Source: Candidatus Bathyarchaeota archaeon (GTDB lineage: Archaea > Thermoproteota > Bathyarchaeia > 40CM-2-53-6 > RBG-13-38-9). From it: 64,000 nt of DNA. Both the position numbers and the translations under genes were made by a program. This document shows positions 18,190 through 60,338 of the stretch, in pieces. The stretch covers positions 2,127 through 66,126 of the forward strand of contig JAOZGX010000103.1 of assembly GCA_026015185.1 (NCBI GenBank). The letters run 5' to 3'. The first letter of the stretch is position 1. Every line of letters begins with the position of its first letter. The notes beneath the pieces are model-generated. The model did no database searches. It was not told the origin of the DNA and worked only from the letters and a program-made list of their open reading frames with translations.

Positions 18190-18294
18190 AAGCAAAAAAA
18201 ATCTAGTATAATTCTGCAAAAATTTAATTTTATATTATTAGCGTATGCTATCTCGGTAAACTCTTATATTATTTCAATGTACATAAAATGAGGC

Positions 18295-18675
18295 GTGAAA
18301 AGTATGCCTTATTGTAGACAATGCGGAGAGAAAAATCCTCAGGATGCTGCTTTCTGTATAAGTTGCGGAGCAAAGGCCAGAGCTACTTCCACCAAATCTA
18401 CATCCTCAACTGATTCTGCTCCTAAAACACAATTGGATGCACCTAGAAAAAAGAAGCATGCTTCATTAGCCGCCATTCTAAGTTTTCTGATAGGTGGATT
18501 AGGGCATTTCTATCTAGGAGAATGGAAGAGGGGCGCATTGTGGTTTATTGCATTGATAATCATAGCGCTAGTACTTTATTATATATTGAATTCTACTGGC
18601 ACTTTTATTGCATTAATATTTAACGTTATCTGTGGTTTAGACGCTAGAAAAATCGCTGTAAAGAAATATTCTTAA
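18295..18675 (+). CDS. Zinc-ribbon + TM2-domain membrane protein
   Basis: N-terminal CRQCGEKN...CISCGAK zinc ribbon. C-terminal AAILSFLIGGLGHFYLGEWKRG is the TM2-domain signature. Confidence 0.6.
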   Translation: MKSMPYCRQCGEKNPQDAAFCISCGAKARATSTKSTSSTDSAPKTQLDAPRKKKHASLAAILSFLIGGLGHFYLGEWKRGALWFIALIIIALVLYYILNSTGTFIALIFNVICGLDARKIAVKKYS

Positions 18676-18884
18676 ACGCGTGTGCTAGTCAAGATCCGAT
18701 AATAATGATATCGTTCTTCATAACCCACACATTACGATAGACTAAGGAAGCATCGTTATTTCAGATATTATCTATTATTTACCTGACATAGGGTTTATAG
18801 AATACAAGGCAACTGAAAAGCTAACGCATTTACTACCAATTCTTAAAAATGATGAAGAATTAAATTACTACCTCAACAATTAAG

Positions 18885-19094
18885 GTGACAAAAGTGAACA
18901 ATGAATTTAAAACAAAATCTATTTCGCATTTCTGTATGTATTCATTGATTGCGTTACTGATATTTTCGTTCTTATCTGTACCTTACAAACCTGCTAGTGC
19001 TGTGGAAGAATATCTGAATGTAATAGACGTTGAAGCTCCATCAAGTATCGGTTTGGCTGAAAAATTCACTGTAAAGGTTAGATTAGATCATTAG
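18885..19094 (+). CDS. Signal-peptide-bearing N-terminal fragment, in frame with the downstream ORF across a single TAG
   Basis: MTKV...LIALLIFSFLSVPYKPASAVEEY is a Sec-type signal peptide. The ORF ends at TAG 19092-19094 and the next ORF's ATG is one codon later in the same frame. Confidence 0.4.
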   Translation: MTKVNNEFKTKSISHFCMYSLIALLIFSFLSVPYKPASAVEEYLNVIDVEAPSSIGLAEKFTVKVRLDH

Positions 19095-19097
19095 GTC

Positions 19098-20411
19098 ATG
19101 AATGATTTCGATGCTTTTATATCAATAATAGATATTGAAGAGGAACAACTTGCATCAGGAGACGAATCAAAAGGTTCTTGGATTATAATAGAACTTCCAG
19201 AAGGAAGTGATTATACTACAGTAGAAATTGAAGTTGAGGCACCAAATGAACCCAAGATTTGGCATCTATCTGCTGTAGCTCTAGCTTGGATTGTTGATAC
19301 GCAAGAATTCGATGTGTTTGGAGCCTACCCTGATAGAAATTTTGATGTGGAAGTCAAACCTACAAAATATACGCTCACATTAAGTGTAACTCCTTCTGAG
19401 TCAGAGAAGCATATGACAGTCACCGGAGGAGGAGAATACGAAAGTGGGCAAAAAGTTGAATTAAAAACTGCGGAAAAAGTTCCAGGTGCAGAAGGAACTC
19501 AATATATTTTCGAAAAATTCTTGATCAACGGAAAGGAAGAGACTGCAAACCCAACAATCATAACGGTAGACCAAGACTATGATATCGTCATGAAATATAG
19601 TACGCAATACTATCTCACAGTTGAGTCAAGTTACGGTACAACATCTGGTGAAGGGTGGTATGAAGATGGGGATAAATCCTTTGCATCTTTGGATATAGAA
19701 AAGATGAGTTCTGGATTTCCTTATGTCTGGAAATTCAAAAGGTGGAGTGGTGATGCTTCTGGTACAGGGCTAACTTCATCTCCTATTACAATGGACAGAC
19801 CTAAAAAAGCTATTGCAATTTGGGAGCAAGAGTTTGGGTGCTTTATTGCTACAGCTACTTATGGCTCTGAGCTTTCACCTGAAGTAACATTTCTAAGAGG
19901 CTTTAGGGATGACCTAGTTTTAACAACATATGCTGGCAATCAATTTATGCAAGTCTTTAACAAGCTCTATTACTCCTTTAGCCCATCAGTAGCTAGGTTT
20001 GTATACGAGAACAATGATGTTGGAATGGCTATGAAGCTAGCTTTATACCCTCTTTTGGGAATACTCCATGTATCAGCTGTGACCTACTCAATTTTCAGTT
20101 TTACTCCAGAGTTAGCGGTAATCTTGTCTGGCTTTGTCGCTAGTTCATTAATTGGTCTAATTTACTTCACGCCAACCACTTTAGGCCTTACAATGATTAC
20201 GAGAAAATTCAAGGGAACAAAGCTAAATACTGGGCATCTAATGCCTATTGCGATATTGGTCTTTTTGAGTATCTTATCGATTCTCATAGGAGAAATTACA
20301 AGGATCACGATGCTAGTACAGATAGCTACAGCAACTTTTGTACTGTCGATCATCTACCTTACTTCTTTATTTGCGACTATGAAAATAGCCAAACGCACTA
20401 GAATTTTCTAG
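19098..20411 (+). CDS. Cell-surface protein with Ig-like region, CFIATATYGS...LRGFRDD motif and a 4-TM C-terminal anchor (possibly a continuation of 18885..19094)
   Basis: No signal peptide of its own; this would be supplied by the upstream fragment if the TAG is read through or is an error. The CFIATAxYGS motif is typical of archaeal surface-protein anchoring domains. TAG stop. Confidence 0.6.
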   Translation: MNDFDAFISIIDIEEEQLASGDESKGSWIIIELPEGSDYTTVEIEVEAPNEPKIWHLSAVALAWIVDTQEFDVFGAYPDRNFDVEVKPTKYTLTLSVTPSESEKHMTVTGGGEYESGQKVELKTAEKVPGAEGTQYIFEKFLINGKEETANPTIITVDQDYDIVMKYSTQYYLTVESSYGTTSGEGWYEDGDKSFASLDIEKMSSGFPYVWKFKRWSGDASGTGLTSSPITMDRPKKAIAIWEQEFGCFIATATYGSELSPEVTFLRGFRDDLVLTTYAGNQFMQVFNKLYYSFSPSVARFVYENNDVGMAMKLALYPLLGILHVSAVTYSIFSFTPELAVILSGFVASSLIGLIYFTPTTLGLTMITRKFKGTKLNTGHLMPIAILVFLSILSILIGEITRITMLVQIATATFVLSIIYLTSLFATMKIAKRTRIF

Positions 20412-20619
20412 AATTACGGAAGAACACTCAATTAACTTTCCTTTTTTTATTGGTGCGCGCTACACTATACTTCATGGCTTTAGAGATAAATCGGTCAATG
20501 TAATAATCCTTAAATAGCACATCATTTACATGTGGTGTAAACAAAATTAGTATTGCCAGAAATGGTCAAAAATGATTGACGAACTAGCACGCTATTTCAA
20601 ATATATCAATTACTAGGTT

Positions 20620-21990
20620 ATGGTATTTTCTGAATTAAAACTAGAGGAAGTTGAATCGAAAATGTTTTCGCATAAAATTAAGGTTTTACTTATCATTTTC
20701 ACTTTATGCTCTATGATTTCAATCGAAACAGGTTTTAGGACAAGGATATTTGTACAAGCTGAGAATAGTGTGGATAATGGCGACATTGAAAAAGTAAGAA
20801 TAGTGGATAGAGACGCTTTAAAGAAAAAGATCGATGAAAATGAAGATTTTGTTCTATTTGATGCGCGTACCTTAAAGAGTTACGAAAAAGAGCATATAAT
20901 AGGCGCGATATCTCTTCCTGTCAATGAGGCTGAAGTTAGGGTCGGGACCATCATCCCAGATAAGAATAAAGAGATAATTGTTTATTGCAGTAGTAAATAT
21001 TGTCCTGAAAGTTCTCTTTTAGTGGAAATACTTGTTGATTTGGGCTATACAAATGTAGCGCATTATGAGGGGGGAATCGATGATTGGAAAGAGGTAGGAT
21101 ATCCAACAGAGAAAAATGAGCGCGCGCGCTTACCTGTAGATGCTCAACAAGATTACACAATAATCTCTAATGAAATAGATTCGACTGTAGTTTTTGATGG
21201 AAAATGGACTACTGATGAAGAATGGAAAAATGGAACTCCAATATCTATGAGATTTAATCCTACTGCGCAAAATGTTGGCCTCATAAATAACGGTACGGTA
21301 TATTGTCAAATAAAGCGTGATGGTGAGGAATTATTCGTTCTGATCGATGCTGTTTCATCCCCAGATCCTTCTGGGAATTATACATCTGGATGGGATTTCT
21401 ATGGAGTGTGTATCGACTCTAATAATGAAAAGTCTGAATACCCGATGAAAGACGATTTAATTATTTCATTGACTTGGTTACTTCAAAATGGGAGCTACTG
21501 GGTAATGAATGGTTTTGGTAGAGTTACAGAGCCTGGATGGGATGCGGCAAATGCAAGAAAAGATCCTGTATACCTAAAACACTCAATTAGTTCATCACCA
21601 TTGTCTGAGAAACCCCATGTAGTATGCGAATTAGCCATTCCATTAGAAGATATGGGTGATGAAATTGGTTTTGGAGTAGTTGCTATTAATTTTTCAAACA
21701 AAACCATTAATACGTGGCCAGACAATTTTGTGGACGGTTCACCCAAAACTTGGGGAACTGTGATTATTAACAAAACAACCGAAATCATTGAGACACCAAT
21801 TTCTATTCAAACAACTAAACCAGCTCAAAATCAAACTGCACCTCCTCCAACTGAAGAAATCGATAAGAATGGTTCGATGAATATTTGGGAATCTCTCTCT
21901 TCACAAACAATTTTCATATTAATTATTGGTGTTATACTGGTTGTCGCGATTATTTTTATAGCTAGGAAATTACTAAAAAGAAAGAAATGA
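20620..21990 (+). CDS. Secreted, membrane-anchored rhodanese-domain protein with a C-terminal beta-rich domain and a Pro/Thr linker
   Basis: Rhodanese fold FVLFDARTLKSYEKEHIIGAISLP ... IIVYCSSKYC (active-site Cys loop) ... YEGGIDDWKEVGYP. The likely start is M15 (signal peptide MFSHKIKVLLIIFTLCS). C-terminal TM plus KRKK. Confidence 0.7.
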   Translation: MVFSELKLEEVESKMFSHKIKVLLIIFTLCSMISIETGFRTRIFVQAENSVDNGDIEKVRIVDRDALKKKIDENEDFVLFDARTLKSYEKEHIIGAISLPVNEAEVRVGTIIPDKNKEIIVYCSSKYCPESSLLVEILVDLGYTNVAHYEGGIDDWKEVGYPTEKNERARLPVDAQQDYTIISNEIDSTVVFDGKWTTDEEWKNGTPISMRFNPTAQNVGLINNGTVYCQIKRDGEELFVLIDAVSSPDPSGNYTSGWDFYGVCIDSNNEKSEYPMKDDLIISLTWLLQNGSYWVMNGFGRVTEPGWDAANARKDPVYLKHSISSSPLSEKPHVVCELAIPLEDMGDEIGFGVVAINFSNKTINTWPDNFVDGSPKTWGTVIINKTTEIIETPISIQTTKPAQNQTAPPPTEEIDKNGSMNIWESLSSQTIFILIIGVILVVAIIFIARKLLKRKK

Positions 21991-22033
21991 TGCTTTAAGT
22001 TCTCCCCTACTAGTACGCGTGCTTTTAATGTAA

Positions 22034-22273
22034 ATGGAGCTAGCCATCTTGTCGAGAGACGTGTCTTTTCGTAGAGATATTTACTTTGCTTTTTTAGGCG
22101 CTATGCTTGGCTTTATCGTTTTTGTGATATATGATATCTACGTTGACTTTGCAACAATCCTATTTGATCTGACTTTCAAAGGTAGATTTTATGCTAAGGT
22201 GTTTTTATCATCAATCATATTCTTAATCGTAATCTTACTAGCAAGGATATGGATAAGGCGATTTCAGCATTAA
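22034..22273 (+). CDS. Hypothetical small 2-TM membrane protein
   Basis: 79-aa hydrophobic ORF. No homology recognised. Confidence 0.3.
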   Translation: MELAILSRDVSFRRDIYFAFLGAMLGFIVFVIYDIYVDFATILFDLTFKGRFYAKVFLSSIIFLIVILLARIWIRRFQH

Positions 22274-22306
22274 TTGAGTTGCTTTTTTAGCGTGTGCTTT
22301 TTATTT

Positions 22307-22346
22307 TTCGTCGTCGTCGGGTACCTTGGTGCGCGACGACGACGAA
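22307..22346. terminator. Strong hairpin between convergent genes: 13-bp stem TTCGTCGTCGTCG / CGACGACGACGAA with a 14-nt loop GGTACCTTGGTGCG, preceded by a T-run
   Basis: Read directly. The stem is a (TCG)4 tract and the loop carries the recurrent GGGTACCTTGG motif. Sits between the stops of 22034..22273(+) and 22382..24505(-). Confidence 0.4.
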
Positions 22347-22381
22347 ATTCATACATCAATATGATCGCCGTGCTATGAGTT

Positions 22382-24412
22382 CTATACCCCATTCGTAGTA
22401 TTCGTAATAGATTGCATTACCTGGAAAACGCCTTGATCAGATGCTAAGAATTTTCCTCCCTCAGATATCATTTTATCAGAAACATATCCTCTCATCGAAT
22501 AAGAACCGCTGGAAGCTTGATCCGACAATTTAAAGCTGATACGAATAATAATCGGGCCTTCATCATCCTTAACAGTATTTTTAATTACATTCTGGATCAT
22601 TAGTATCTGCAGTGGAACCCCATTATCATCCTCTATTTCGATCCAAATAATTCCGTTTAATTCGTCACCTCCGTTATTTATATCCAGAACCACATTTACA
22701 GTTTCTCCTGGACTGAAAATATTCTTTTTCGAATTATTCACATCTGTAGAATAGATAGTGGCTATGATAATAGCTGGATCTGAGCTTTCGCCTACGACAA
22801 ATGACGTTAGGGCATAGGCGTCTCGAACATCTAAATTACTTGCAGTAATAAAAAGTTGATACGTTCCTGATTTGGAATTATCGCCTAGAGTAAAATTATT
22901 ATAAAAACTTCCATGTATATCGGTTGTTGTAAGGCCTATGTGAGCGACATCACCTGAATGATCTGCTACTTGGATAGAAATTGAGACATTATCTGTTGAA
23001 ATGCCCCAACCATCAACCTTTCCATCAATATGAACAGTTTCTCCTGGATTGTATGCTAGCTTATCTGTGGAGATTTCCACTTGCAATGAAGCCCCAGATA
23101 TAATAAGAACTAGACTTGTAGCACATATAGGTCCACCTTCAGCATTACACTTACCCGTTATTGTTAGATAATATATACCTGGAGTGACAAGGAAACCTGT
23201 ACTTACAAGAAGTGTAAGATCTTGTTCATTATCTTGGCCAATAATTACCGGATTTGTACTGAACTCCGATGTGCAATTTTTTGGTAATCCCCCCACTGAG
23301 AAATTTATTGGATCTTCGCTAAGGCCAGAGGTTGAGATAAATATATTATACTTTACAGAATCGCCAGGGATCACCAATTGTGAATTTGGATTTACCTTAA
23401 AATTGAATTCAACTTCTGTGCTGCTTTTGATCCTTAACGTTACATCAAATTTTCTTACCTCATTCAAATGCTTAGCTGAGATTGTAAGGTTATAAATGCC
23501 ATCAGGTGTGCTTGAATCAGAAATAATTTCCATTTTCGAGTTGAATGGGGGGATTCCTGAAGGATTTTCGAAAATTACTTCAGCATCAATAGGTAATCCA
23601 GAGATATCAATTGGAACCTTGTTATAATATTCACCGATAGAAAGGACTTCCACATCGTAAACAGCTGTTTCGCCTGCATCAATTATCTGGAAGTCTGGAT
23701 TAGCTGATAGTGAAAATTCCTTAGGGAGTTTGGCCTCAGTTCCAACATATACCATATCATAATATGCTGTTTGAATAATCCCGGTGCCATAGACATCCGC
23801 TAAGACAAGACCTACACCAGTTATATCAATATTTTGAGGTGGACCCCAAACTGCTGTATAATCTTCATATAAATTCCTTTCATGAGGCATCCATACTTTT
23901 TCAAGCTCATGAAACACGAAGGAATAGGATAATGAACTATTTATACGCGACCCATAATATTCAGAGATGTAATATCCAATTTTTCCATTACTGAATTTGT
24001 AAAAGATACCAATATAGCTGAAATGTTTTAAGGGAACATTCCAAACGAAAGCAGAAACTGTATCCTCCATAAGAGGAATAACAAAGCCTTTTTCAGTGAA
24101 ATCATAATTATACTTTATAACAGCCGATTGTCCTGGTTTTGTGGTTTGAGCTGAGAAAGATAATGATTTCTTTCCTTCGTAAGAAATATCTGCCTGTGTT
24201 TTGAATTCTATAGTTTCCCATCTCCCCTCATGTTCTAGTTTCCATTCGTCAATTCTACGCTCAAAATTCTCATAAAATAAGCTGGCTTCTCTGTAATCCT
24301 TTCTATCATTGTCTTCTTTGCCCAAAACATGGGGCGTATTTGAAATAGTAACTAAATTCATGCAGACAAGCAACAGAACCAATAATGAGGTAGTAGATAT
24401 CCTGGCCTTCAT
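22382..24412 (-). CDS. Large secreted cell-surface protein with multiple Ig/CARDB-like beta domains
   Basis: The likely true start is MKARISTTSLLVLLLVC (signal peptide) at 24412. The tracked ORF extends upstream through a TTG and the GCGCGCGC palindrome. TAG stop. Confidence 0.65.
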   Translation of the reverse strand: MKARISTTSLLVLLLVCMNLVTISNTPHVLGKEDNDRKDYREASLFYENFERRIDEWKLEHEGRWETIEFKTQADISYEGKKSLSFSAQTTKPGQSAVIKYNYDFTEKGFVIPLMEDTVSAFVWNVPLKHFSYIGIFYKFSNGKIGYYISEYYGSRINSSLSYSFVFHELEKVWMPHERNLYEDYTAVWGPPQNIDITGVGLVLADVYGTGIIQTAYYDMVYVGTEAKLPKEFSLSANPDFQIIDAGETAVYDVEVLSIGEYYNKVPIDISGLPIDAEVIFENPSGIPPFNSKMEIISDSSTPDGIYNLTISAKHLNEVRKFDVTLRIKSSTEVEFNFKVNPNSQLVIPGDSVKYNIFISTSGLSEDPINFSVGGLPKNCTSEFSTNPVIIGQDNEQDLTLLVSTGFLVTPGIYYLTITGKCNAEGGPICATSLVLIISGASLQVEISTDKLAYNPGETVHIDGKVDGWGISTDNVSISIQVADHSGDVAHIGLTTTDIHGSFYNNFTLGDNSKSGTYQLFITASNLDVRDAYALTSFVVGESSDPAIIIATIYSTDVNNSKKNIFSPGETVNVVLDINNGGDELNGIIWIEIEDDNGVPLQILMIQNVIKNTVKDDEGPIIIRISFKLSDQASSGSYSMRGYVSDKMISEGGKFLASDQGVFQVMQSITNTTNGV

Positions 24413-24474
24413 CTTTCTTTCCGAATTTAATATATCTTCCATATTTTTAAATGTTTTTTTGTAGCACATATTTG

Positions 24475-24486
24475 CGCGCGCGCTAC
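24475..24486. promoter_or_regulatory. GC palindrome variant GCGCGCGCGCTA, 63 nt upstream of the probable start of the surface-protein gene
   Basis: Read directly. A TTTAAAAATAT AT-box lies between the motif and the ATG on the coding strand. Confidence 0.35.
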
Positions 24487-24769
24487 TATAGCAAATAATT
24501 AACAATTTAATAAAGAGCCTATAAAAAATCGAGAAAAAAAATATAAATCCCTAAATTTTCTCGTCTATTCTATCTGACATTAATATTAAAGGGGATTCAA
24601 AAGTCTTTGTTAGGAGCATTCTTTTCTGACTTTTGTTTTACGATTGGATGCCAAAAAATTGAAACATGGAGATTAAGAAAGACCTTATCAAAAATGTTTA
24701 TTGGTATTTGGATATTGTTGTTATTTTTTTATTGTGCATATTATTTTTAGCGCATGCTCACATGAATCA

Positions 24770-24994
24770 TTATCTTCTAAGTATCAATTGGAGGATTGCA
24801 ACAACTACAAATGCTATTCCTGCATAAATCAGATTTGAAGTTATAAACCAAACTACTAAAGCAGCGATGATAGGTAAAATAAAGTACAATACTGTCTTTA
24901 GAATTGATACTATAATTAATCCAACTACCAATAATATTATGAAGATGATTATTTCACTGAAGCCTATTGAATTCAAGATAGAAAATTGATACAT
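24770..24994 (-). CDS. Hypothetical small 2-TM membrane protein
   Basis: 74-aa hydrophobic ORF in an 800-bp AT-rich gap. Confidence 0.25.
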   Translation of the reverse strand: MYQFSILNSIGFSEIIIFIILLVVGLIIVSILKTVLYFILPIIAALVVWFITSNLIYAGIAFVVVAILQLILRR

Positions 24995-25314
24995 AGTAAA
25001 AATCCAACCTATTGTATGGAATTGTAATTATGATATTATTTAAAATTTCAACAAGTGTATGTGGTTTCATAAGATCCTTTTTTTGCGGAGCCTCCTATGA
25101 TTGGCACCAATCAAATATCTGAATTATTTATATCGATGCGTACATATTTTCAATTTCTAATAAAATTAGAAAATAATTCCTATTAGATTTAATCAAAAAC
25201 ATGGTGGGAATGGTTAATATTAATCAGAATCATTATAGTAATTACTCGAAGTAGTGAAATTAAGTAAATTTTAAAACAGTTATCTATTGACATATTAGTA
25301 AGGTAATTTGTAAA

Positions 25315-26883
25315 ATGCAATCTAAATCTAGTAGAAAAATAGCTGTGATTCTCGCATCAATTTTGATAATCTCATCATTACATGTCCCTTATGCGTTTTC
25401 GCAAACAAATTTGACTCCTAATAGAACGACATCCCCTACCCGTGTTATGGAAGATGAAACTATAAGGATCACTATTGAACTGGAGGGTGCAGGGGATATA
25501 TCTGCATCACCTGTTGATACAATGATGGTTATAGATAAATCAGCCAGCATGGCTGGCGATAAGATCGCTGATGCCAAGACTGCTGCAAAAGCCCTTCTTA
25601 CACTTACCAATGAATTAGATAGGGCTGGTCTAATATCCTTTGGCAGTAGTATAAAAATCAAATATGAATTGGCAATTATGAACTCGACTAATAAAGAGGA
25701 TTTAGAAGACGAGATCGATGACATCACAACTAGTGGGCAGACTAATATATACGATGCCATAATTGCGACCAATGACCTCCTAAATGATTCTCCTAGGCAA
25801 AATGTTCCAAAGGTACAGATTCTTCTTACAGATGGTGCCCACAATTATCCAACAACGCGTCCAGATAGTGATTTCGAAGATCTAGCTGAAGATACAAGGG
25901 ATCAAGGCATCACAATATTCACAATAGGTCTAGGGGTCGACACCAACGAGGAAAGGCTTGGGATGATAGCAAATATCACAGGAGGAAGGTTCTTCTATGC
26001 TCCTACATCTGACGATCTGCCTGAGATATTCAGAGACATCGCAAGGATGTTGGCTTTGGTCGGTACAGACATCGTGGTAACAGAGAGGATCCCTGACTAC
26101 TTGACCTATAATGAAGACGCATCGAAAGACCCTGATGAAAGAAATGATTTTGTAGCCGTACCATTGGGTGTTTCAGATTCGCGCCCGCTACTTGAGCTCA
26201 AATGGAATGTTGGCAGAATGTGGTTGCGGGACGAGTGGAACGTCACTTATACTGTCAAGGCGGAAGACGCTGTGGATACCAGCGGCATTGTGAGCTTCTC
26301 GCAGATAACATACAAAACTCGCGAGGGGCAGTCAGTCACAATAGACCTCTATCAGGGATTAGTTTTTCACAACATATCATTAACAGACCTGATTATAGAC
26401 CCGACTAATGTGATCCAAGGCGATGTGATAAATATCACTGCTACCGTTGATAGCGAGGGCATGATTCAAGATACTTTTCCCGTTGATATAAGGTACGACA
26501 GTACGTTGTTGAACAGGCAGACCGTAACCTTGAGTCCAGGCGAGTCAAAAAACGTAACCTACTCATGGAATACTACTGGTGTGGAGGTTAGAGAGTATAA
26601 CATTACGGTTACCGCGGATCCAGATGAAAATATATGGGAGCAGGACAGGTCAGATAACACAGATAAAGATGAAGTGCGAATATCTACACAAAGCAACCTG
26701 ATAATCTTTTTGTTAATAGGACTCTTTTTCTTGATAATAGCTGTAGCTGGTGTAATAGGCGGTTACCTGTATGAAACAAAGGGAAGAAGATCCCAACCGG
26801 ACTATAGATGGTACTTTGCTGGATGTAGCTTGCGTGCAATATCAAAACTTGCGAAAAGTTCAAATCTAATCAAAGTTCGATAA
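25315..26883 (+). CDS. Secreted vWA-domain + CARDB-domain protein with a C-terminal TM anchor
   Basis: Signal peptide; MIDAS DKSASMAGDKIADAKTAAK (DxSxS), T and D sites; C-terminal CARDB-like beta domain (ITATVDSEGMIQDTFPVDIRYD...). Paralog of 58791..60338. Confidence 0.8.
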   Translation: MQSKSSRKIAVILASILIISSLHVPYAFSQTNLTPNRTTSPTRVMEDETIRITIELEGAGDISASPVDTMMVIDKSASMAGDKIADAKTAAKALLTLTNELDRAGLISFGSSIKIKYELAIMNSTNKEDLEDEIDDITTSGQTNIYDAIIATNDLLNDSPRQNVPKVQILLTDGAHNYPTTRPDSDFEDLAEDTRDQGITIFTIGLGVDTNEERLGMIANITGGRFFYAPTSDDLPEIFRDIARMLALVGTDIVVTERIPDYLTYNEDASKDPDERNDFVAVPLGVSDSRPLLELKWNVGRMWLRDEWNVTYTVKAEDAVDTSGIVSFSQITYKTREGQSVTIDLYQGLVFHNISLTDLIIDPTNVIQGDVINITATVDSEGMIQDTFPVDIRYDSTLLNRQTVTLSPGESKNVTYSWNTTGVEVREYNITVTADPDENIWEQDRSDNTDKDEVRISTQSNLIIFLLIGLFFLIIAVAGVIGGYLYETKGRRSQPDYRWYFAGCSLRAISKLAKSSNLIKVR

Positions 26884-26906
26884 TGTTAGCAAATGGTGAT
26901 TGAATT

Positions 26907-27284
26907 ATGAGCTATGCATATATTCCCAAACCTCCTAAAAGAGTCCTTTGCCAACCGCCACCTGAAACATATACATGTACACCCTCTCCAAGAGCTGTAA
27001 TGGTTCAAGATCCGCCCGTTCAATACGAATACTTCCCTCCACCAGTGGAGTATGTTGAACCGTCTCCTCCTGATGTTTATTACCAGCCTCCTCCTGAGGA
27101 ATTTGCGGTTGAAAAACCGCCTATAACATATGTCTACCAGCCACCCCCGGAGGAGTATTGCGTACCGCAACCTGCGGAGCACTTTATTGTTCAGCAGCCA
27201 GCATACAGAGTCTGTTATTGCTGTGGAGGAAATCTAGGAGAAACAGAGAGATTTTGCCCTAGCTGTGGAGCAGGACAACAATAA
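26907..27284 (+). CDS. Proline-rich repeat protein (YxQPPPEE repeats) with a C-terminal zinc ribbon
   Basis: Repeats QPPPETY, YYQPPPEEF and YVYQPPPEEY, then CYCCGGNLGETERFCPSCG. Lies directly downstream of the vWA gene. Confidence 0.5.
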   Translation: MSYAYIPKPPKRVLCQPPPETYTCTPSPRAVMVQDPPVQYEYFPPPVEYVEPSPPDVYYQPPPEEFAVEKPPITYVYQPPPEEYCVPQPAEHFIVQQPAYRVCYCCGGNLGETERFCPSCGAGQQ

Positions 27285-27492
27285 CCCATTTTTTTATTCT
27301 CATAAACTGAGAATCTATTTTTTTTCAATTGATATGGCACTCGCTATGGTGATTCTCTATTTAATTAAAATTAGAAAATGATATACATCAATTGGAACAA
27401 GATACACTCGATTTAAAATCTCCTTATTGTTAATGGAAAGTAATATATTTGTTTATTAAGAAATAAAATTCTAGGATTGGTGTATAATAAAA

Positions 27493-27852
27493 ATGAAAGC
27501 AAAAATTGGTGAATGGGCCTTCATTGCTTTTGTAATAATAGCGATCTTAGCTGGTCTTGCGGCAGGCATGGGTGGCGACGTAGCTCTTGGATGGGTCACA
27601 CTATTAATGGTGATTCTTGGTATAATAGTTGGGTTTACAACAATAACAACTAAAGAAGCCTCAACATTTCTTATGGCTGCAATCGCTTTGTTGGTTGCTA
27701 ATGCAGGCGGTGTTTTCCTAACAATCGATCAAGTACTTGCTCCCTTAGGAACCATTATCAATGCAATTTTGAATAATATTGCCGCATTCGTAGCTCCAGC
27801 CGCAATTATTTTAGCAGTCAAGGCAATAGTAGGCATAACCAAAACAAAATAA
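27493..27852 (+). CDS. Hypothetical small 3-4 TM membrane protein
   Basis: 119-aa Ala/Gly/Ile-rich hydrophobic ORF. Confidence 0.4.
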   Translation: MKAKIGEWAFIAFVIIAILAGLAAGMGGDVALGWVTLLMVILGIIVGFTTITTKEASTFLMAAIALLVANAGGVFLTIDQVLAPLGTIINAILNNIAAFVAPAAIILAVKAIVGITKTK

Positions 27853-27971
27853 ATACTTTAAAACCACTTCTTTCTTTTTTCTATTTTTTTTACTAAACAG
27901 CAATAGAATATGCAGTTTTTTCCTGAATAACATGCAATTAAGCAATTTTAAATAATCTTTAAACAATTTTA

Positions 27972-28955
27972 ATGAGATTAATTATGAATTTCGGAAAAAT
28001 ATTTAAAATATTGGAGAAGGAGATTATATGGCTATCTCCAAGGATTATCATACTTGCTTTAGTCAGTATAGGATTGTTTCTTTTTTCTCAATTTGGATAT
28101 ATAACCAATGAACAATATTCAATATTTTTCAAGATTTGGCTTGTAGCATACATCTTATTTGGCGCGGCTCTATTCAATAGGTACATTATTCCTAGTATCC
28201 GTGAATTGTTATTTAAATTGGGCACTCGTTATATAGCCGAGATTAAAGATAGAGTGAAATTAAGACGCGCTACTGATTTCTATTCAAGATTATTTTCATA
28301 TGCGATTTATGTAATTGCCATCCTCGCTTCAATCAATTTATTTTTTAATTTGCAGGTCGTATGGTCGGCTCTTGGTACTACATTCTTCTTAATCATAACC
28401 TTCTTCATAGGATTGTTAACATCTTCAGTTTTGGGAAATCTGATAGCGTATGAGGCCATCCGTCAGACAAATATTATTTCTACACATGATATGATCGAAA
28501 AAAAGGATGAATTTTTTGGAGAGGTTATGGGAATCGGCGCATTTAATACAAGCGTCAAGACTACCAAAGACGAAATAATCAACATACCAAATCTGGATTT
28601 AGTGAGTAATGTTTTTACAAATTATAGTAAAAAGATACCTTTGATTATATATGTACCGATTAGTTTAGGCTATGATATAAAGAAGGATGTTGCTAAGAAA
28701 TTATTAATCGAAGCTGCTAAAAAAACTAAAGGCATTCTAAAAGAACCCAAACCTTTCGTTCTTATTCTGGAATTGGGTAATTATGCAATAACGTATGAAA
28801 TAAATGCATATATTGATCAGCCTCTTGACCTCGTGACTATTAGATCAAACCTTATGGAGAATATAATCGACATTTTTAAAAAGAATAGAGTTGCGATAGT
28901 CAGTCCGGAATATGCTATCCTAAAGATCGCCAGAGGTCGAGAACTAAAGAATTAA
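27972..28955 (+). CDS. MscS-family small-conductance mechanosensitive channel
   Basis: TM region followed by the MscS beta-domain motif GEVMGIGAFNTSVKTTKDEIINIPNLDLVSNVFTNYS. Confidence 0.7.
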   Translation: MRLIMNFGKIFKILEKEIIWLSPRIIILALVSIGLFLFSQFGYITNEQYSIFFKIWLVAYILFGAALFNRYIIPSIRELLFKLGTRYIAEIKDRVKLRRATDFYSRLFSYAIYVIAILASINLFFNLQVVWSALGTTFFLIITFFIGLLTSSVLGNLIAYEAIRQTNIISTHDMIEKKDEFFGEVMGIGAFNTSVKTTKDEIINIPNLDLVSNVFTNYSKKIPLIIYVPISLGYDIKKDVAKKLLIEAAKKTKGILKEPKPFVLILELGNYAITYEINAYIDQPLDLVTIRSNLMENIIDIFKKNRVAIVSPEYAILKIARGRELKN

Positions 28956-29063
28956 AAAAATTCGATGTACACTCTAAAGCCAGCATGCCCTATATTCAAA
29001 TAATTCTAATAGTATTAAAAAAATAAGGGAATTAATGGAATAATCAAACATCATCTTAGCGGA

Positions 29064-29453
29064 TTATTTCTTATATAGAGCCCCTAGGACAGGGCCATAA
29101 ACAAGCCTCACGAAAAATCCAACGATACCCCACATAACCGCCAAAGGAATCATCTGTAGACTCAGAACAAAAAATGAAATCGGATATAATCCCACAAAGA
29201 CTAACCAAATTATGAGACTATAGATAAGACCCTTCATGACACCTTTACCAGGAACTACATTATAGACTTTGGCATATATTGCGCCAAATATAGTGCCCCA
29301 GATTAAATTGAGTGCTATCTGGACTATAATCCAATTTGTCATGCTAGGAGCGGCTCCCCAGAGTCCCATACTGAAGCCTACAAATCCAACAATAAGGCTT
29401 GTTATTCCACCGGCTATTCCTGCAATAGCGCCAGCGCTAGTACCACTTTTCAT
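29064..29453 (-). CDS. Small 4-TM membrane protein, member 2 of the paralog family
   Basis: AGAIAGIAGG ... VPGKGVMKGLIYSLIIW ... GALYKK. Confidence 0.6.
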   Translation of the reverse strand: MKSGTSAGAIAGIAGGITSLIVGFVGFSMGLWGAAPSMTNWIIVQIALNLIWGTIFGAIYAKVYNVVPGKGVMKGLIYSLIIWLVFVGLYPISFFVLSLQMIPLAVMWGIVGFFVRLVYGPVLGALYKK

Positions 29454-29637
29454 AAAAAATTCACCTCCTATTCTAATTACCAGGAATTTGAACGTGCGTA
29501 CTAATAATCAGATATTGTTTATTGTCGTAGTGTAAATAAGAATTTGCATTTACAAATGTGCTAGGGATCTCGTAAGCACGCATGTTGGGATGAATTAACT
29601 CTGACTTTAGGTGAAAAATGTGATGGTTTTAATAAAT

Positions 29638-31089
29638 TTAATGAGGGCGTTTACTCTTTCTACCAACTCTATAAGTCAGAATTATTGCAGCTAAAGCTAT
29701 TATAAGAGCTATAATCGCTATTGTTTCTAGAATTGGAGGGCTCACTTGAGCAGGTATTACTGGTTCTCCCTGTCTCATACGTTCTGCTTCTGCTCTCATT
29801 TTGACCAGATGTTCCCTCATCGGAGCATATCCTTCCCAATGCATGTAATCCGAGCTCTCATGGAAAGCACCTTGGAACATTCGGTTATGCCATTGTTCTA
29901 GCATTAAGTAGAGATCTTGCTCTATAGGGGTAGGAGAGGTATAGAAAGCAAGCATAAATGGATAGTTGTATGGATAAGTCTCTGGCTTCTGGATCACCCC
30001 CTCCTCGTACAGCTCTGCGACTAATCTTACACCTTCTGCAAGCAAATGAATTGACTCCTTAGTTGTAGCTTCATATTGTGTAAACTGTTTATCTATATAC
30101 GACTCTGAGTGGCATCTAGAGCAAATCTGTATTTCTTTCTGCCTCACACTTTGGAATTCTTCATCTGATAATCTAGCTATTCTCAAATCCTTTACAACAT
30201 CAAGAAGAACGCCTGGTTCGCCTTCAGGGGTGAGAACTGCGAGACCTTTTAAAACTTCAGCATTATCTTCTGCCCACTCTGGATCATCTGCTAAAGGCCC
30301 AACACCAGGGCCTAGTAGGCCATAAAAACCATAGGCTGTGATAGAATTATGATCTCCGTTGTCCATATGACATGTGATACAAACTGGGGCTTGATTGGGC
30401 CACTGTTCGTTATAAGGATAATCCCAAGTATAGTTTTCTCCTCTTGTATCATAGATTATGCCATGCTTTGAGCTTATGAACATTTCATAAGTTGGGTGGT
30501 CAAATCCCATGTGACAGGTTCTACATGCCTCTGGTTTTCTAGCCTCAATAACAGAGAATGTATGCCTAGTATGGCAAGAGTCGCATTTTGCTCCAGGCGT
30601 ATCAGCGACACCAGGTGTACTTGGTCCCCAATTTGGAATGTCTCCTGACGCTCCAATTCTATGGCAGTAACCGCAACCCTTCCACTTTATTGTTTCATTT
30701 ATTTGCAGCACATTCTCGGCTACGACCTCCATTGCAAGCCATGCCAGATGATGTTTTCCTTCAACGAATTGCTCAACCCTTTGGGGATGGCATGATTTAC
30801 ATGGCGTTTCAGTTGGCATTACTAAAGCTTCATGATTCTGGCCATGGCAGGTATCACAATAGATTTCGTTTTGAGCATGTTTACTCATATTCCAAGATTG
30901 GACCAATCCAGGCATAGTTGTTACATGACAATTTATGCAATCTTGACCAGTATAATTGCCCTTCATCTGCTGGGCCTGAACTGCAATAATGCTCTCTTCT
31001 GCATTGCTCAAGGTATAGTTACTAAAAAGCAAAGAAGAAGTGGTGAATGAAATTAGAAGCAAAATGAATATGATACTGTTATATCGCAT
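29638..31089 (-). CDS. Octaheme c-type cytochrome (HAO/octaheme-reductase-like), signal peptide and C-terminal TM anchor
   Basis: Eight CxxCH motifs read in the translation: CINCH, CDTCH, CKSCH, CGYCH, CDSCH, CRTCH, CITCH, CSRCH. The likely start is MRYNSIIFILLLISF. C-terminal hydrophobic helix plus RKSKR. Confidence 0.8.
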   Translation of the reverse strand: MRYNSIIFILLLISFTTSSLLFSNYTLSNAEESIIAVQAQQMKGNYTGQDCINCHVTTMPGLVQSWNMSKHAQNEIYCDTCHGQNHEALVMPTETPCKSCHPQRVEQFVEGKHHLAWLAMEVVAENVLQINETIKWKGCGYCHRIGASGDIPNWGPSTPGVADTPGAKCDSCHTRHTFSVIEARKPEACRTCHMGFDHPTYEMFISSKHGIIYDTRGENYTWDYPYNEQWPNQAPVCITCHMDNGDHNSITAYGFYGLLGPGVGPLADDPEWAEDNAEVLKGLAVLTPEGEPGVLLDVVKDLRIARLSDEEFQSVRQKEIQICSRCHSESYIDKQFTQYEATTKESIHLLAEGVRLVAELYEEGVIQKPETYPYNYPFMLAFYTSPTPIEQDLYLMLEQWHNRMFQGAFHESSDYMHWEGYAPMREHLVKMRAEAERMRQGEPVIPAQVSPPILETIAIIALIIALAAIILTYRVGRKSKRPH

Positions 31090-31171
31090 CCTCTTCAATG
31101 GGATTAGCTCCAAATAAAAATAGTCTATCAATACATTCTATGTTTTTTATTTATTTAATAATTTGCATGTA

Positions 31172-32485
31172 TCAATCGAGTCGGAATAGCTTTTTTGCAG
31201 TTTTTAATGTATTAATATCGCTGTACTCCGCCGCTTTCCTCAAATTCATTACAGGATCGTATAGAATTCTCTCTGTTATTACCTGTGTTAAATCTTCAAT
31301 TACTTTTTTTTCCTTGACATCCATTTTTCCAAGCATTTTCAGTGCTTTTTTCAACTCTTTTAGCCTGATCTCTTCCGCTTTACTGCATAAGTTCGTCACA
31401 ATTGGCTCTGCTTCCTCACGTTTTAATATAATCTTGAACAACTTCAAATCATCATCAATCATCGCTTCGGCCTTTTCTGCCTGTTTGAGACGTTTTTTAA
31501 GATTTAACTCTGCAATTTCGCGTAAATCATCGATATCATAAAGCTCTACATTTAGTAATTCACCGATGCTTTCCTCAACATTCCTAGGTTGAGAGATGTC
31601 CATGACGAATATTTTCTTCATTTTCCTTGCATTCAGGGCATCTTGAAAAGCTTCTTTTGTTAGTGTATAATGTGGAGCAGCTGTGGCAACGATTACTGCA
31701 TCAACTTCAACAATAACACTATTTAGATTTATGAATGGAACTGGAATTCCATTCAAAACTTTCGCAAGTTTCTTGCTGGTTTCATAAGTTCTATTTACTA
31801 TGTATATTTTAGTCTGCTTCTTAGAAACCAATGCTTTGGTTAAAAGTCTACCAGTTTTTCCTGCACCAATAATAGCAATCTTCTTTTTATTTAGATTGCC
31901 AAGTTTTGATTCCAATAGTTTAACTGCTGCAGATGCTATTGAAACCGCGCCTTTATTTATTTTTGTTTCAAATCTTACTTTCTTTCCTGTTTTTATTGCT
32001 CGATTAAAAGTTGAATCTAGAATTGATCCTGAAGTATGATATTTCTTGGATTTTTCAAGAGCTGCTTGAATCTGGCCAAGAATCTGGTCTTCGCCAACCA
32101 TCATGGACTCTAAGCCTGAAGCCAGTCTCATAAGATGGGTTAATGCATCAATTTTGAACGATTTCTCTATGAATTTATTGAATTCATTCTTGCTTAATTC
32201 AGCACTCTTTCTCCAGTACTCCTCGATCTTCGTTCCAGTTTTTCTTAAGTTAGATTCTTTTGCAACAGCGTAAATTTCAACTCGGTTACATGTTTGCAAT
32301 ATGATGCATTCTTCAGCACAACTCAATGAAAGTAATTCTTCTTGAACTCCATTTGGATCCTTAAAGGTCACTTTTTCTAAATATACCATTGAAAATTTCT
32401 TATGCGTAAAACGAAGATTGATTAAACTATCAATTCCTTCTTGAGCTTCTACGAATCCATTAGCGTTTGACGATCTTTTAGCCAA
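31172..32485 (-). CDS. hemA: Glutamyl-tRNA reductase
   Basis: Catalytic-Cys signature QTCNRVEIY; NADPH Rossmann IAIIGAGKTGRL; C-terminal dimerisation helix. Confidence 0.9.
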   Translation of the reverse strand: MAKRSSNANGFVEAQEGIDSLINLRFTHKKFSMVYLEKVTFKDPNGVQEELLSLSCAEECIILQTCNRVEIYAVAKESNLRKTGTKIEEYWRKSAELSKNEFNKFIEKSFKIDALTHLMRLASGLESMMVGEDQILGQIQAALEKSKKYHTSGSILDSTFNRAIKTGKKVRFETKINKGAVSIASAAVKLLESKLGNLNKKKIAIIGAGKTGRLLTKALVSKKQTKIYIVNRTYETSKKLAKVLNGIPVPFINLNSVIVEVDAVIVATAAPHYTLTKEAFQDALNARKMKKIFVMDISQPRNVEESIGELLNVELYDIDDLREIAELNLKKRLKQAEKAEAMIDDDLKLFKIILKREEAEPIVTNLCSKAEEIRLKELKKALKMLGKMDVKEKKVIEDLTQVITERILYDPVMNLRKAAEYSDINTLKTAKKLFRLD

Positions 32486-58790: not shown

Positions 58791-60338
58791 CTATCTGAAA
58801 TAGCGTCTGCATCTAGCGCAGTACCATCTTCCGGTTCGGCTGTCGCATATCAAGGACGATCTACATCTCGGACAAGAAGCGTGTGCACTACTAATGACTC
58901 TTCCCCTTCCACGTCTAGAATAGTAGATTCCTCCAACTGCAGATGTAGCTAACATCAAGAAAAATATAACGATAACGAAGAAGATGATCGGACTTAATTC
59001 TCCGGCGCTAACATCTACTTTTGTAGTCGCTATATTATCAGTCCTGTTTTGCTCCCATATATTCTCATTTGGATCTGCAATGACTTTAACATCATATCTC
59101 CCTCCTTGAACATCGGAAGTATTCCATTTATAGCTAACATTCTTAGGCTTATTCGGTTCAAGAATCACGGTTTGACTGTTCAACAATGTATTGTTCGACC
59201 TCATCTCTACCTCGCAAGCATCTTGTAACATACCTTTACTCTCAACAGTAGCTAGAATATTCACTAATTCTCCACGGCTTACCCTATCTGGCTCTGCAAC
59301 TAATCGAGTTACTGCAATATCGTGAAAAACCAATCCAGGTAAGAGATTTATTGTAACTGGAACATCTTCAATCGTAGTATATTTAATTTGAGTCTGGCTT
59401 ATGGCACTACTGGAATCAACAGCTTCGTCAGCTCGGGCTGTATAGGAAACCTCCCAGACTTCATTTATCCAAAGAGTGCCTACATCCCATTTGAGAGTTG
59501 TATTTGAACTCTCATTTATTTCATCTGGAGTTATCGAAGAGTCCTTATTATAGGATAAATAATAGGGAACGGTCTCAGATACCGTAATTCCAATACCGGC
59601 TATCGCTAATCTGCCTGCAATCTCAATAAATATGTCTTGAAGTTCTTCTGATGTCGGTGCAAAGTAATATTGACCGTCAGTAATATCAGCGATCATTCTA
59701 AGCCTATCAGCATCAACATCGCTCCCTAAACCTATTGTATATATAACAATCCCACTATCTCTAGTTTCTTCTGCAAGGGACTCAAACGCCCCATCAGGAA
59801 CCGCTGGATAATTATGACGACCGTCTGTGAGGAATATTTCTACTAACGGGATATCTTCTCTTGCCGAATCAATGAGAAGTTCATTTGTGGTTTTTATGGC
59901 ATCATAGATGTTAGTAGTTCCTGCTGCACTCACTTTGAAAGTGTCTATCTCACTCTTTAAAAAATCCTTATTAGCGGAATTCATGAATTCTAAATCAGAT
60001 TCAATCTTTACATCTCTTGAAAATGTAATCAAACCAACTCTATCGATATCATCGGTAAAATCTAGAAATGCTTTAGCTGCAGTTTTAGCATCAGCTATTT
60101 TACTACCGCTCATGCTACCAGATCTGTCAAGAACCAAAACGACATCTACTTCAGAAAAACCAATATCTCCGACTCCAGAAAGCTCGATAGTAATCCTTAC
60201 CGTTTCCCCCTCTAAAACACGTTGGGGAGAGATTATCTTATTTATTTCTAAGCGTTGAATCCCTTGTGAATTCGCATTAGGGATGTATATGGGTAGGATT
60301 ACCAACAGTATGAAAATTAAAGGAATTATTTTGCGCAA
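58791..60338 (-). CDS. Secreted vWA-domain + CARDB-domain protein with a C-terminal TM and cytoplasmic zinc-ribbon tail
   Basis: MIDAS DRSGSMSGSKIADAKTAAK; CARDB-like ILATVESKGMLQDACEVEMR...; TM; then CPRCRSS...CARCRRYFR. Paralog of 25315..26883. TAG stop. Confidence 0.8.
   Translation of the reverse strand: MRKIIPLIFILLVILPIYIPNANSQGIQRLEINKIISPQRVLEGETVRITIELSGVGDIGFSEVDVVLVLDRSGSMSGSKIADAKTAAKAFLDFTDDIDRVGLITFSRDVKIESDLEFMNSANKDFLKSEIDTFKVSAAGTTNIYDAIKTTNELLIDSAREDIPLVEIFLTDGRHNYPAVPDGAFESLAEETRDSGIVIYTIGLGSDVDADRLRMIADITDGQYYFAPTSEELQDIFIEIAGRLAIAGIGITVSETVPYYLSYNKDSSITPDEINESSNTTLKWDVGTLWINEVWEVSYTARADEAVDSSSAISQTQIKYTTIEDVPVTINLLPGLVFHDIAVTRLVAEPDRVSRGELVNILATVESKGMLQDACEVEMRSNNTLLNSQTVILEPNKPKNVSYKWNTSDVQGGRYDVKVIADPNENIWEQNRTDNIATTKVDVSAGELSPIIFFVIVIFFLMLATSAVGGIYYSRRGRGRVISSAHASCPRCRSSLICDSRTGRWYCARCRRYFR

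Follow-up and report, generated by a model that had tools for sequence, protein, structure and literature searches.

In ordinary young nonsense pseudogenes, a single substitution has created a stop codon, the rest of the gene is intact, full-length homologues are found, and the pieces are annotated as two hypothetical proteins. A lone in-frame TAG also marks the pyrrolysine (Pyl) genes of the mtmB/mtbB/mttB type; selenocysteine and Pyl are the only demonstrated cases of stop-codon read-through among archaea, Pyl being located in the active sites of methylamine methyltransferases (PMC8211752), and some Bathyarchaeota genomes encode PylRS (PMC9630628). In the CFI-box-CTERM proteins, a beta-rich ectodomain precedes the module described by the NCBIfam model NF041770, an order found in hundreds of homologues. 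We analyzed a 64,000-nt stretch of DNA (the window; G+C content, 36.8%) from a metagenome-assembled genome (MAG) of a Candidatus Bathyarchaeota archaeon, and focused on 18894..20411, where a gene of this last type is interrupted by an in-frame amber codon (TAG, 19092-19094). The locus is very probably a lineage-specific amber nonsense allele (CAG to TAG), that is, a young pseudogene or null allele of a CFI-box-CTERM surface-protein gene.

Compared with ordinary single-lesion nonsense pseudogenes, the locus showed no substantive difference, the loss of the protein being predicted here from sequence. With Pyl genes it shares a lone in-frame TAG, its place in an archaeal gene, and a phylum with some PylRS-encoding members, but here the TAG is unconserved, the protein is no methyltransferase, TAG serves as a free terminator, and the window showed neither Pyl genes nor a tRNA. 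The order of domains is that of the CFI-box-CTERM proteins, except that the amber codon divides the signal peptide and two beta-strands from the remainder, so that the signal peptide is not in the same polypeptide as the CFI-box domain but in a separate open reading frame (ORF) cut off by the TAG at 19092. Judged by its sequence, the split gene is a CFI-box-CTERM member by descent, broken as written.

Organization of the interrupted gene

The codons GTG 18885, TAG 19092-19094, GTC, ATG 19098, and TAG 20409-20411, the last being the normal stop of the gene, lie in a single shared frame on the plus strand ((19098-18885) mod 3 = 0). The upstream ORF (18885/18894..19094) closes at the first TAG and, after one codon (GTC), is followed by a 437-aa ORF (19098..20411), a layout that the initial annotation had described correctly. 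This TAG is the sole stop in the window that has at least 60 open codons on each side and is not the antisense shadow of a gene on the opposite strand. For the upstream ORF, GTG 18894 is a likelier start than GTG 18885, with which the mechanically called ORF begins: a Shine-Dalgarno (SD)-like motif, AAGGTGA (18882..18888), can be read 5 nt upstream of GTG 18894, and GenBank uses the same start. Across the window, many ORFs have a GGTG/GGAGG-type motif 10-15 nt ahead of the start codon. In GenBank, the upstream product is MCW4033392.1 (NWF08_08415, 66 aa, starting at 18894) and the downstream product is MCW4033393.1 (NWF08_08420, 437 aa); both are labelled "hypothetical protein" of a Candidatus Bathyarchaeota archaeon MAG.

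Comparison with homologues showed that related genes are continuous. P0002 (502 aa) is 50% identical to the fused query over 91% of its length, and P0004 (497 aa) is 36% identical; each is a single chain with its own signal peptide and is one called gene on its contig. Residues 41-69 of the upstream ORF aligned with residues 36-64 of P0002 (55% identity, E 2e-9), the alignment stopping exactly at the TAG, and the downstream ORF carried the same alignment on across the stop. Among the homologues compared, none was split, and in no relative did the downstream part carry a further signal peptide. The P0002 contig, only 1.7 kb long, showed no synteny with the zinc-ribbon gene upstream of the split gene.

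To place the stop in the structure, we modelled P0002, a full-length homologue with 50% identity, in AlphaFold2 (mean predicted local distance difference test score, pLDDT, 80.9). The model comprised a leader helix (residues 11-27), a beta-sandwich (38-151), further beta domains, and four long C-terminal helices. The stop corresponds to Tyr65 of P0002, at the end of strand E55-66 and inside this first immunoglobulin (Ig)-like sandwich. Because of this position, two strands of the first domain (E38-45 and E55-66) would lie upstream of the TAG, and the strands completing it (E73-81, E103-114, E120-132, and E144-151) downstream. On the alignments and the model, the ORFs 18894..19094 and 19098..20411 are read as pieces of one ancestral gene. 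The initial annotation had favored one gene interrupted by a stop, and the orthologues bore this out: P0002 and P0004 are full-length single genes with a sense codon at the position, and the frame of the nearest relative is open there with CAG.

Origin of the amber codon

The 90%-identity cluster of the 437-aa protein includes two Joint Genome Institute (JGI) metagenome proteins. The nearest relative, contig L001 (JGI 3300041074), is about 95% identical in nucleotide sequence (94.6-95.2%; 95.2% over 1329 nt). At the site, L001 reads TTA GAT CAT CAG TCC TTG GAT (LDHQSLD), versus TTA GAT CAT TAG GTC ATG AAT (LDH, stop, VMN) in the window. Since L001 has CAG, the stop is one C>T transition, at 19092, away from a glutamine codon. 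The frame of L001 is open from the site to the contig edge, and the codon equivalent to ATG 19098 is TTG (Leu). In more distant homologues, the column of the stop holds Tyr (TAT), Gly (GGT), or Leu and adjoins a loop of variable length; judging from these alignments, no special residue is needed there. Neither the protein search nor the 90% cluster contained an intact allele at >90% identity. Relatives of the N-terminal 251 aa were not found in the metagenome or genome contig collections, and scanning both for exact 20-mers yielded nothing but chance matches to unrelated bacteria (L003-L005).

We then compared substitution rates between the window and L001 by the Nei-Gojobori method. The downstream ORF had a nonsynonymous rate (dN) of 0.029 and a synonymous rate (dS) of 0.119 (dN/dS 0.24); the corresponding ratios were 0.215 for the neighboring VWA/CARDB surface protein and 0.075 for the MscS-like channel. 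Within the gene, the N-terminal Ig-like domain had the highest dN (0.058) and dS (0.153). No second stop or frameshift was present in the split gene, and its SD-like motif, start codon, and signal peptide were intact. The downstream dN/dS of 0.24 and the lack of a second lesion indicate that the break is young. Either the lesion arose long after the divergence from L001, or selection still acts on the downstream ORF. The first is favored because a product begun at ATG 19098 would be without a leader and two strands of its first domain, has no well-placed SD-like motif, and would not suit the ectodomain-outside topology predicted from the basic residues of the tail. Of the options listed by the initial annotation, the data single out a recent nonsense mutation.

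Under this interpretation, 18894..20411 is a single gene for a secreted, membrane-anchored surface protein of a Bathyarchaeota archaeon: a Sec signal peptide leads into an Ig-like (CARDB-like) domain, which is followed by two beta-repeat modules and a CFI-box-CTERM module as the putative multi-helix anchor. In this lineage, one C>T transition at 19092 turned a Gln codon (CAG) into an amber codon inside the first Ig-like domain. Translation would end at the TAG and give a useless product of about 66 aa, and whatever might be made from ATG 19098 would come without a signal peptide and with a first domain two strands short, so that its ectodomain could not reach the surface. For these two reasons the gene would be a young null allele (pseudogene), either fixed or polymorphic in the population.

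Evaluation of alternative explanations

Were the TAG an error of sequencing, assembly, or consensus, or a minor variant taken up into the MAG, the gene would be intact in the organism. Minority alleles can enter MAG consensus sequences, the lesion is one base, and the remainder of the gene looks fully functional. However, a Logan contig from Sequence Read Archive run SRR32197408 (L008, SRR32197408_3788858, 934 nt) corresponds to window positions 18255-19188 and reads the same TAG, being identical at 934/934 positions with TAG-GTC-ATG included. A 52-aa product running from an internal Met to the same stop is also recorded from the Logan assembly of this run. Contigs of the Logan pipeline need k-mers seen more than once. 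Because a second assembler, working from raw reads, yields the same base, an artefact of MAG assembly or polishing is unlikely; the window is also free of error-prone signs, being 85% coding, with 60 long ORFs and no other split gene. We regard an erroneous or minority TAG, which the initial annotation had listed as a sequencing error, as very unlikely. Restart at ATG 19098 would instead make the downstream ORF useful alone, as a 437-aa membrane protein without a signal peptide, and the locus two functional genes. This would fit an ATG one codon past the stop, purifying selection on the downstream ORF since the divergence from L001 (dN/dS 0.24), the lack of further lesions in it, and its separate entry in GenBank. 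Yet the ATG is TTG (Leu) in the open frame of L001, hence an ordinary internal codon, and has no SD-like motif at the usual distance, an AGGT ending 1 nt before it versus 10-15 nt upstream elsewhere. A protein begun there would be two strands short in its first beta-sandwich and would have no signal peptide, which every full-length homologue has; no homologue is split; and the dN/dS of 0.24 would be expected just as well of a stop that arose long after the divergence from L001. Two functional genes are accordingly improbable in our judgement. The possibility that ATG 19098 is a newly selected restart codon was likewise rejected, the Leu/Met difference being conservative and placed in a variable loop, with no properly spaced SD-like motif.

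Decoding of the amber codon into a full-length protein, whether by Pyl, by a suppressor tRNA (programmed or regulated), or by appreciable near-cognate read-through, would agree with the frame being perfectly kept on either side of a lone TAG and with the presence of PylRS in some Bathyarchaeota genomes (PMC9630628). The codon itself speaks against such use: it is CAG in the 95%-identical relative and encodes Tyr, Leu, or Gly in others, and it falls in a variable loop of an Ig-like domain, unlike the methyltransferase active site that houses Pyl (PMC8211752). TAG is also not avoided as a terminator, since the stops of the 60 ORFs of at least 100 aa in the window are TAA in 33, TAG in 14 (the split gene counted), and TGA in 13. 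The initial annotation had put the number of other genes ending in TAG at about 16, which is too high; the recount is in line with its doubt about genome-wide Pyl recoding. The window held no other split gene or in-frame TAG in a real gene, and neither tRNA genes nor Rfam families were found in it. The 130 nt around and after the stop folded no better than shuffled sequences (z = -0.86), and no stable RNA structure follows the stop. Read-through to a full-length protein is therefore extremely unlikely, and the programmed amber read-through once offered as an option finds no support at an unconserved position where TAG is a normal stop. Phase variation, also among the options of the initial annotation, was rejected: no tandem repeats occurred in 18700-19400, a search of 18300-20700 for inverted repeats or the arms of an invertible element returned only short, chance-level repeats, and the lesion is a base substitution.

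Several points weigh against the reading of the locus as a young null allele. L001 begins 9 nt upstream of the site, and a contig end is the least reliable part of an assembly; five of the differences between the window and L001 crowd into the 12 nt at and after the stop. The dN/dS of 0.24 is equally expected of a downstream gene that is still functional, and an ATG 3 nt past the stop leaves room for termination-reinitiation and some residual use of the downstream part. Support for the TAG is at the level of assembly consensus. If SRR32197408 and the MAG come from one library, the second assembly rules out a mistake in assembly, but a systematic error in the reads would pass into both assemblies.

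Consequences for annotation

The finding is ordinary and mainly an annotation correction. A single gene record, marked as carrying an internal stop, should replace NWF08_08415 (66 aa) and NWF08_08420 (437 aa). The longer of the two entries is unfit as a full-length representative of its family because it has no signal peptide and its first domain is two strands short. As a CAG-to-TAG change, the locus offers a clean, dated example of surface-protein gene loss in an uncultured Bathyarchaeota lineage. Nothing about the genetic code of these archaea follows from the split. Of more interest is the putative CFI-box-CTERM anchor, on which the split is silent.

Features of the encoded protein

The probable true start, GTG 18894, opens a general secretory (Sec)-type signal peptide (18894..19001), as indicated by sequence, hydrophobicity, and the GenBank start. 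The leader has a Lys-rich n-region, a hydrophobic core (CMYSLIALLIFSFLSV), and the c-region PYKPASA with Ala at -3/-1, from which the cleavage site is predicted by the -3/-1 rule; a Kyte-Doolittle scan placed the hydrophobic segment at residues 12-34. The signal peptide of the initial annotation was thus recovered with a likelier start at 18894, and the mature part before the stop comprises about 30 residues (40-69) rather than about 25. These first 30 or so mature residues (VEEYLNVIDVEAPSSIGLAEKFTVKVRLDH, 19002..19091) supply, by the P0002 alignment and model, beta-strands one and two of the Ig-like (CARDB-like) domain at the N-terminus. The amber lesion (19092..19094) follows, and 19098..19382, beginning with the ATG of the downstream ORF, encodes the remaining strands of the interrupted domain, as placed by the P0002 model and Foldseek.

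In a Foldseek search, the first domain of the P0002 model superposed on the CARDB domain of PF1109 (PDB 2kl6 and 3idu) with TM scores of 0.53-0.61 (target-normalized), and it also matched the NBR1 FW domain. The likeness to CARDB is one of fold alone, as seen in the model of a homologue with 50% identity. Pfam CARDB had no match in the sequence of the window, and the related proteins P0003 and P0005 have Pfam CARDB matches. Two more beta-rich ectodomain modules (19383..19838) resemble divergent InlB B-repeats: residues 211-244 matched Pfam PF18998, Flg_new_2 (E 2.5e-4, under the gathering score), and residues 154-308 of the P0002 model were all-beta, with pLDDT mostly 85-95.

The CFI-box-CTERM domain core (GCFIATATYGSELSPEVTFLRGFRDD...YYSFSP) occupies 19839..20054. 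The downstream ORF matched NF041770 with 70.3 bits (cut-off, 40; E 8.8e-20) over residues 248-319 of its 437 aa, covering profile positions 1-68 of 69, and the motif CFIATATYGS...FRDD, which the initial annotation had taken for an anchoring motif, proved to belong to this family. Its form here is GCFIATATYGSELSPEV.FLRGFRD...YYSFSP, followed by hydrophobic helices to the C-terminus. The motif columns were almost invariant among 33 aligned homologues, and the window contains a single CFI-box motif, that of the 437-aa ORF. Pfam had no matching model for the module, and the searchable literature library turned up nothing on it by name or motif. A search of 5.8 billion proteins returned 661 matches at E <= 0.001, many of them from Bathyarchaeota or Bathyarchaeia. 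Most have only the C-terminal module in common, their ectodomains being diverse (CARDB, PKD, Big_3_5, cytochrome c, and beta-helix).

The hydrophobic C-terminal tail (20022..20408) was delimited by a Kyte-Doolittle scan and the P0002 model. The scan showed a weaker helix at about 20022-20090 and strongly hydrophobic segments at 20106-20174, 20223-20294, and 20304-20381, and the P0002 model has four long helices there (residues 370-396, 401-434, 442-465, and 468-497). The tail of four transmembrane segments proposed by the initial annotation therefore stands as three strong hydrophobic segments plus one weaker, with the number four holding for the helices of the homologue model. The hydrophobic segments after the CFI-box motif extend to residue 499 of 508, and this layout recurs in the 33 aligned homologues and the P0002 model. 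The first strong hydrophobic segment is followed by basic residues, and others lie at the C-terminus; by the positive-inside rule they would fit a topology with the ectodomain outside, which requires the leader. From this arrangement, the CFI-box module is a putative multi-helix membrane anchor.

Neighborhood and strain variation

The genes around the locus are ordinary chromosomal ones, encoding TFB, a zinc-ribbon/TM2 protein, an enolase-superfamily enzyme, and histidine kinases, and further VWA/CARDB proteins, an MscS-like channel, a multi-haem cytochrome, and glutamyl-tRNA reductase. Directly downstream of the split gene, a 4.3-kb block (20460-24757) is present in the window and not in the JGI contigs L001 and L002, whose sequence passes straight from the equivalent of 20460 to that of 24758. 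The block encodes a secreted rhodanese-domain protein with a C-terminal transmembrane segment (20620-21990), a 79-aa membrane protein (22034-22273), and a 707-aa MG2-domain surface protein (22382-24505, minus strand). Its left and right edges in the window have T-run motifs that resemble each other (TTTTTTTATTGGTGC and TTTTTTTATTGTGC, respectively). In the rhodanese-domain protein, the mechanically called ATG 20620 precedes the apparent real leader (MFSHKIKVLLIIFTLCSMISIE, from the 15th codon); the Rhodanese match covers only residues 65-158, and the 250 residues from there to the C-terminal transmembrane segment had no family match.

Between window positions 19083-30658 and positions 1-6190 of L001, identity was mosaic, ranging from 87% to 97.5%: it was 94.6% in the split gene, 87.0% in the VWA/CARDB gene region, 97.5% in the MscS-like channel, and 87.3% in the multi-haem cytochrome. 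This pattern suggests recombination or uneven divergence among the genes for surface and secreted proteins, and together with the extra 4.3-kb block it indicates that the region varies between strains. L001 and L002, two independent contigs of the related lineage, both break inside the N-terminal Ig-like domain of the gene (at the equivalents of 19083 and about 19345), and for the window's own strain the Logan contig stops at 19188; strain variation at this domain may fragment assemblies. The amber allele could conceivably be a selected "off" variant of a surface protein in a strain-variable surface-protein island, which we consider doubtful. The absence of the 4.3-kb block from the relative, the mosaic identity, and the contig breaks in the N-terminal domain make such a reading consistent with the data. 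If it were true, loss of an exposed protein could, for example, remove a virus receptor, and low-level near-cognate read-through or reversion of TAG to CAG would let the protein return.

Two paralogous VWA and CARDB proteins of about 520 aa are encoded 32 kb apart (25315-26883 and 58791-60338, minus strand) and cross-match at about 62% nucleotide identity through L001. The multi-haem c-type cytochrome (497 aa; 29638-31131, minus strand) matched Pfam Multi-haem_cyto with 100.9 bits, had MtrC/MtrF-like domain matches, and adjoins the gene for glutamyl-tRNA reductase of haem synthesis (31172-32485, minus strand). Multi-haem cytochrome domains also occur in the CFI-box homologue P0109.

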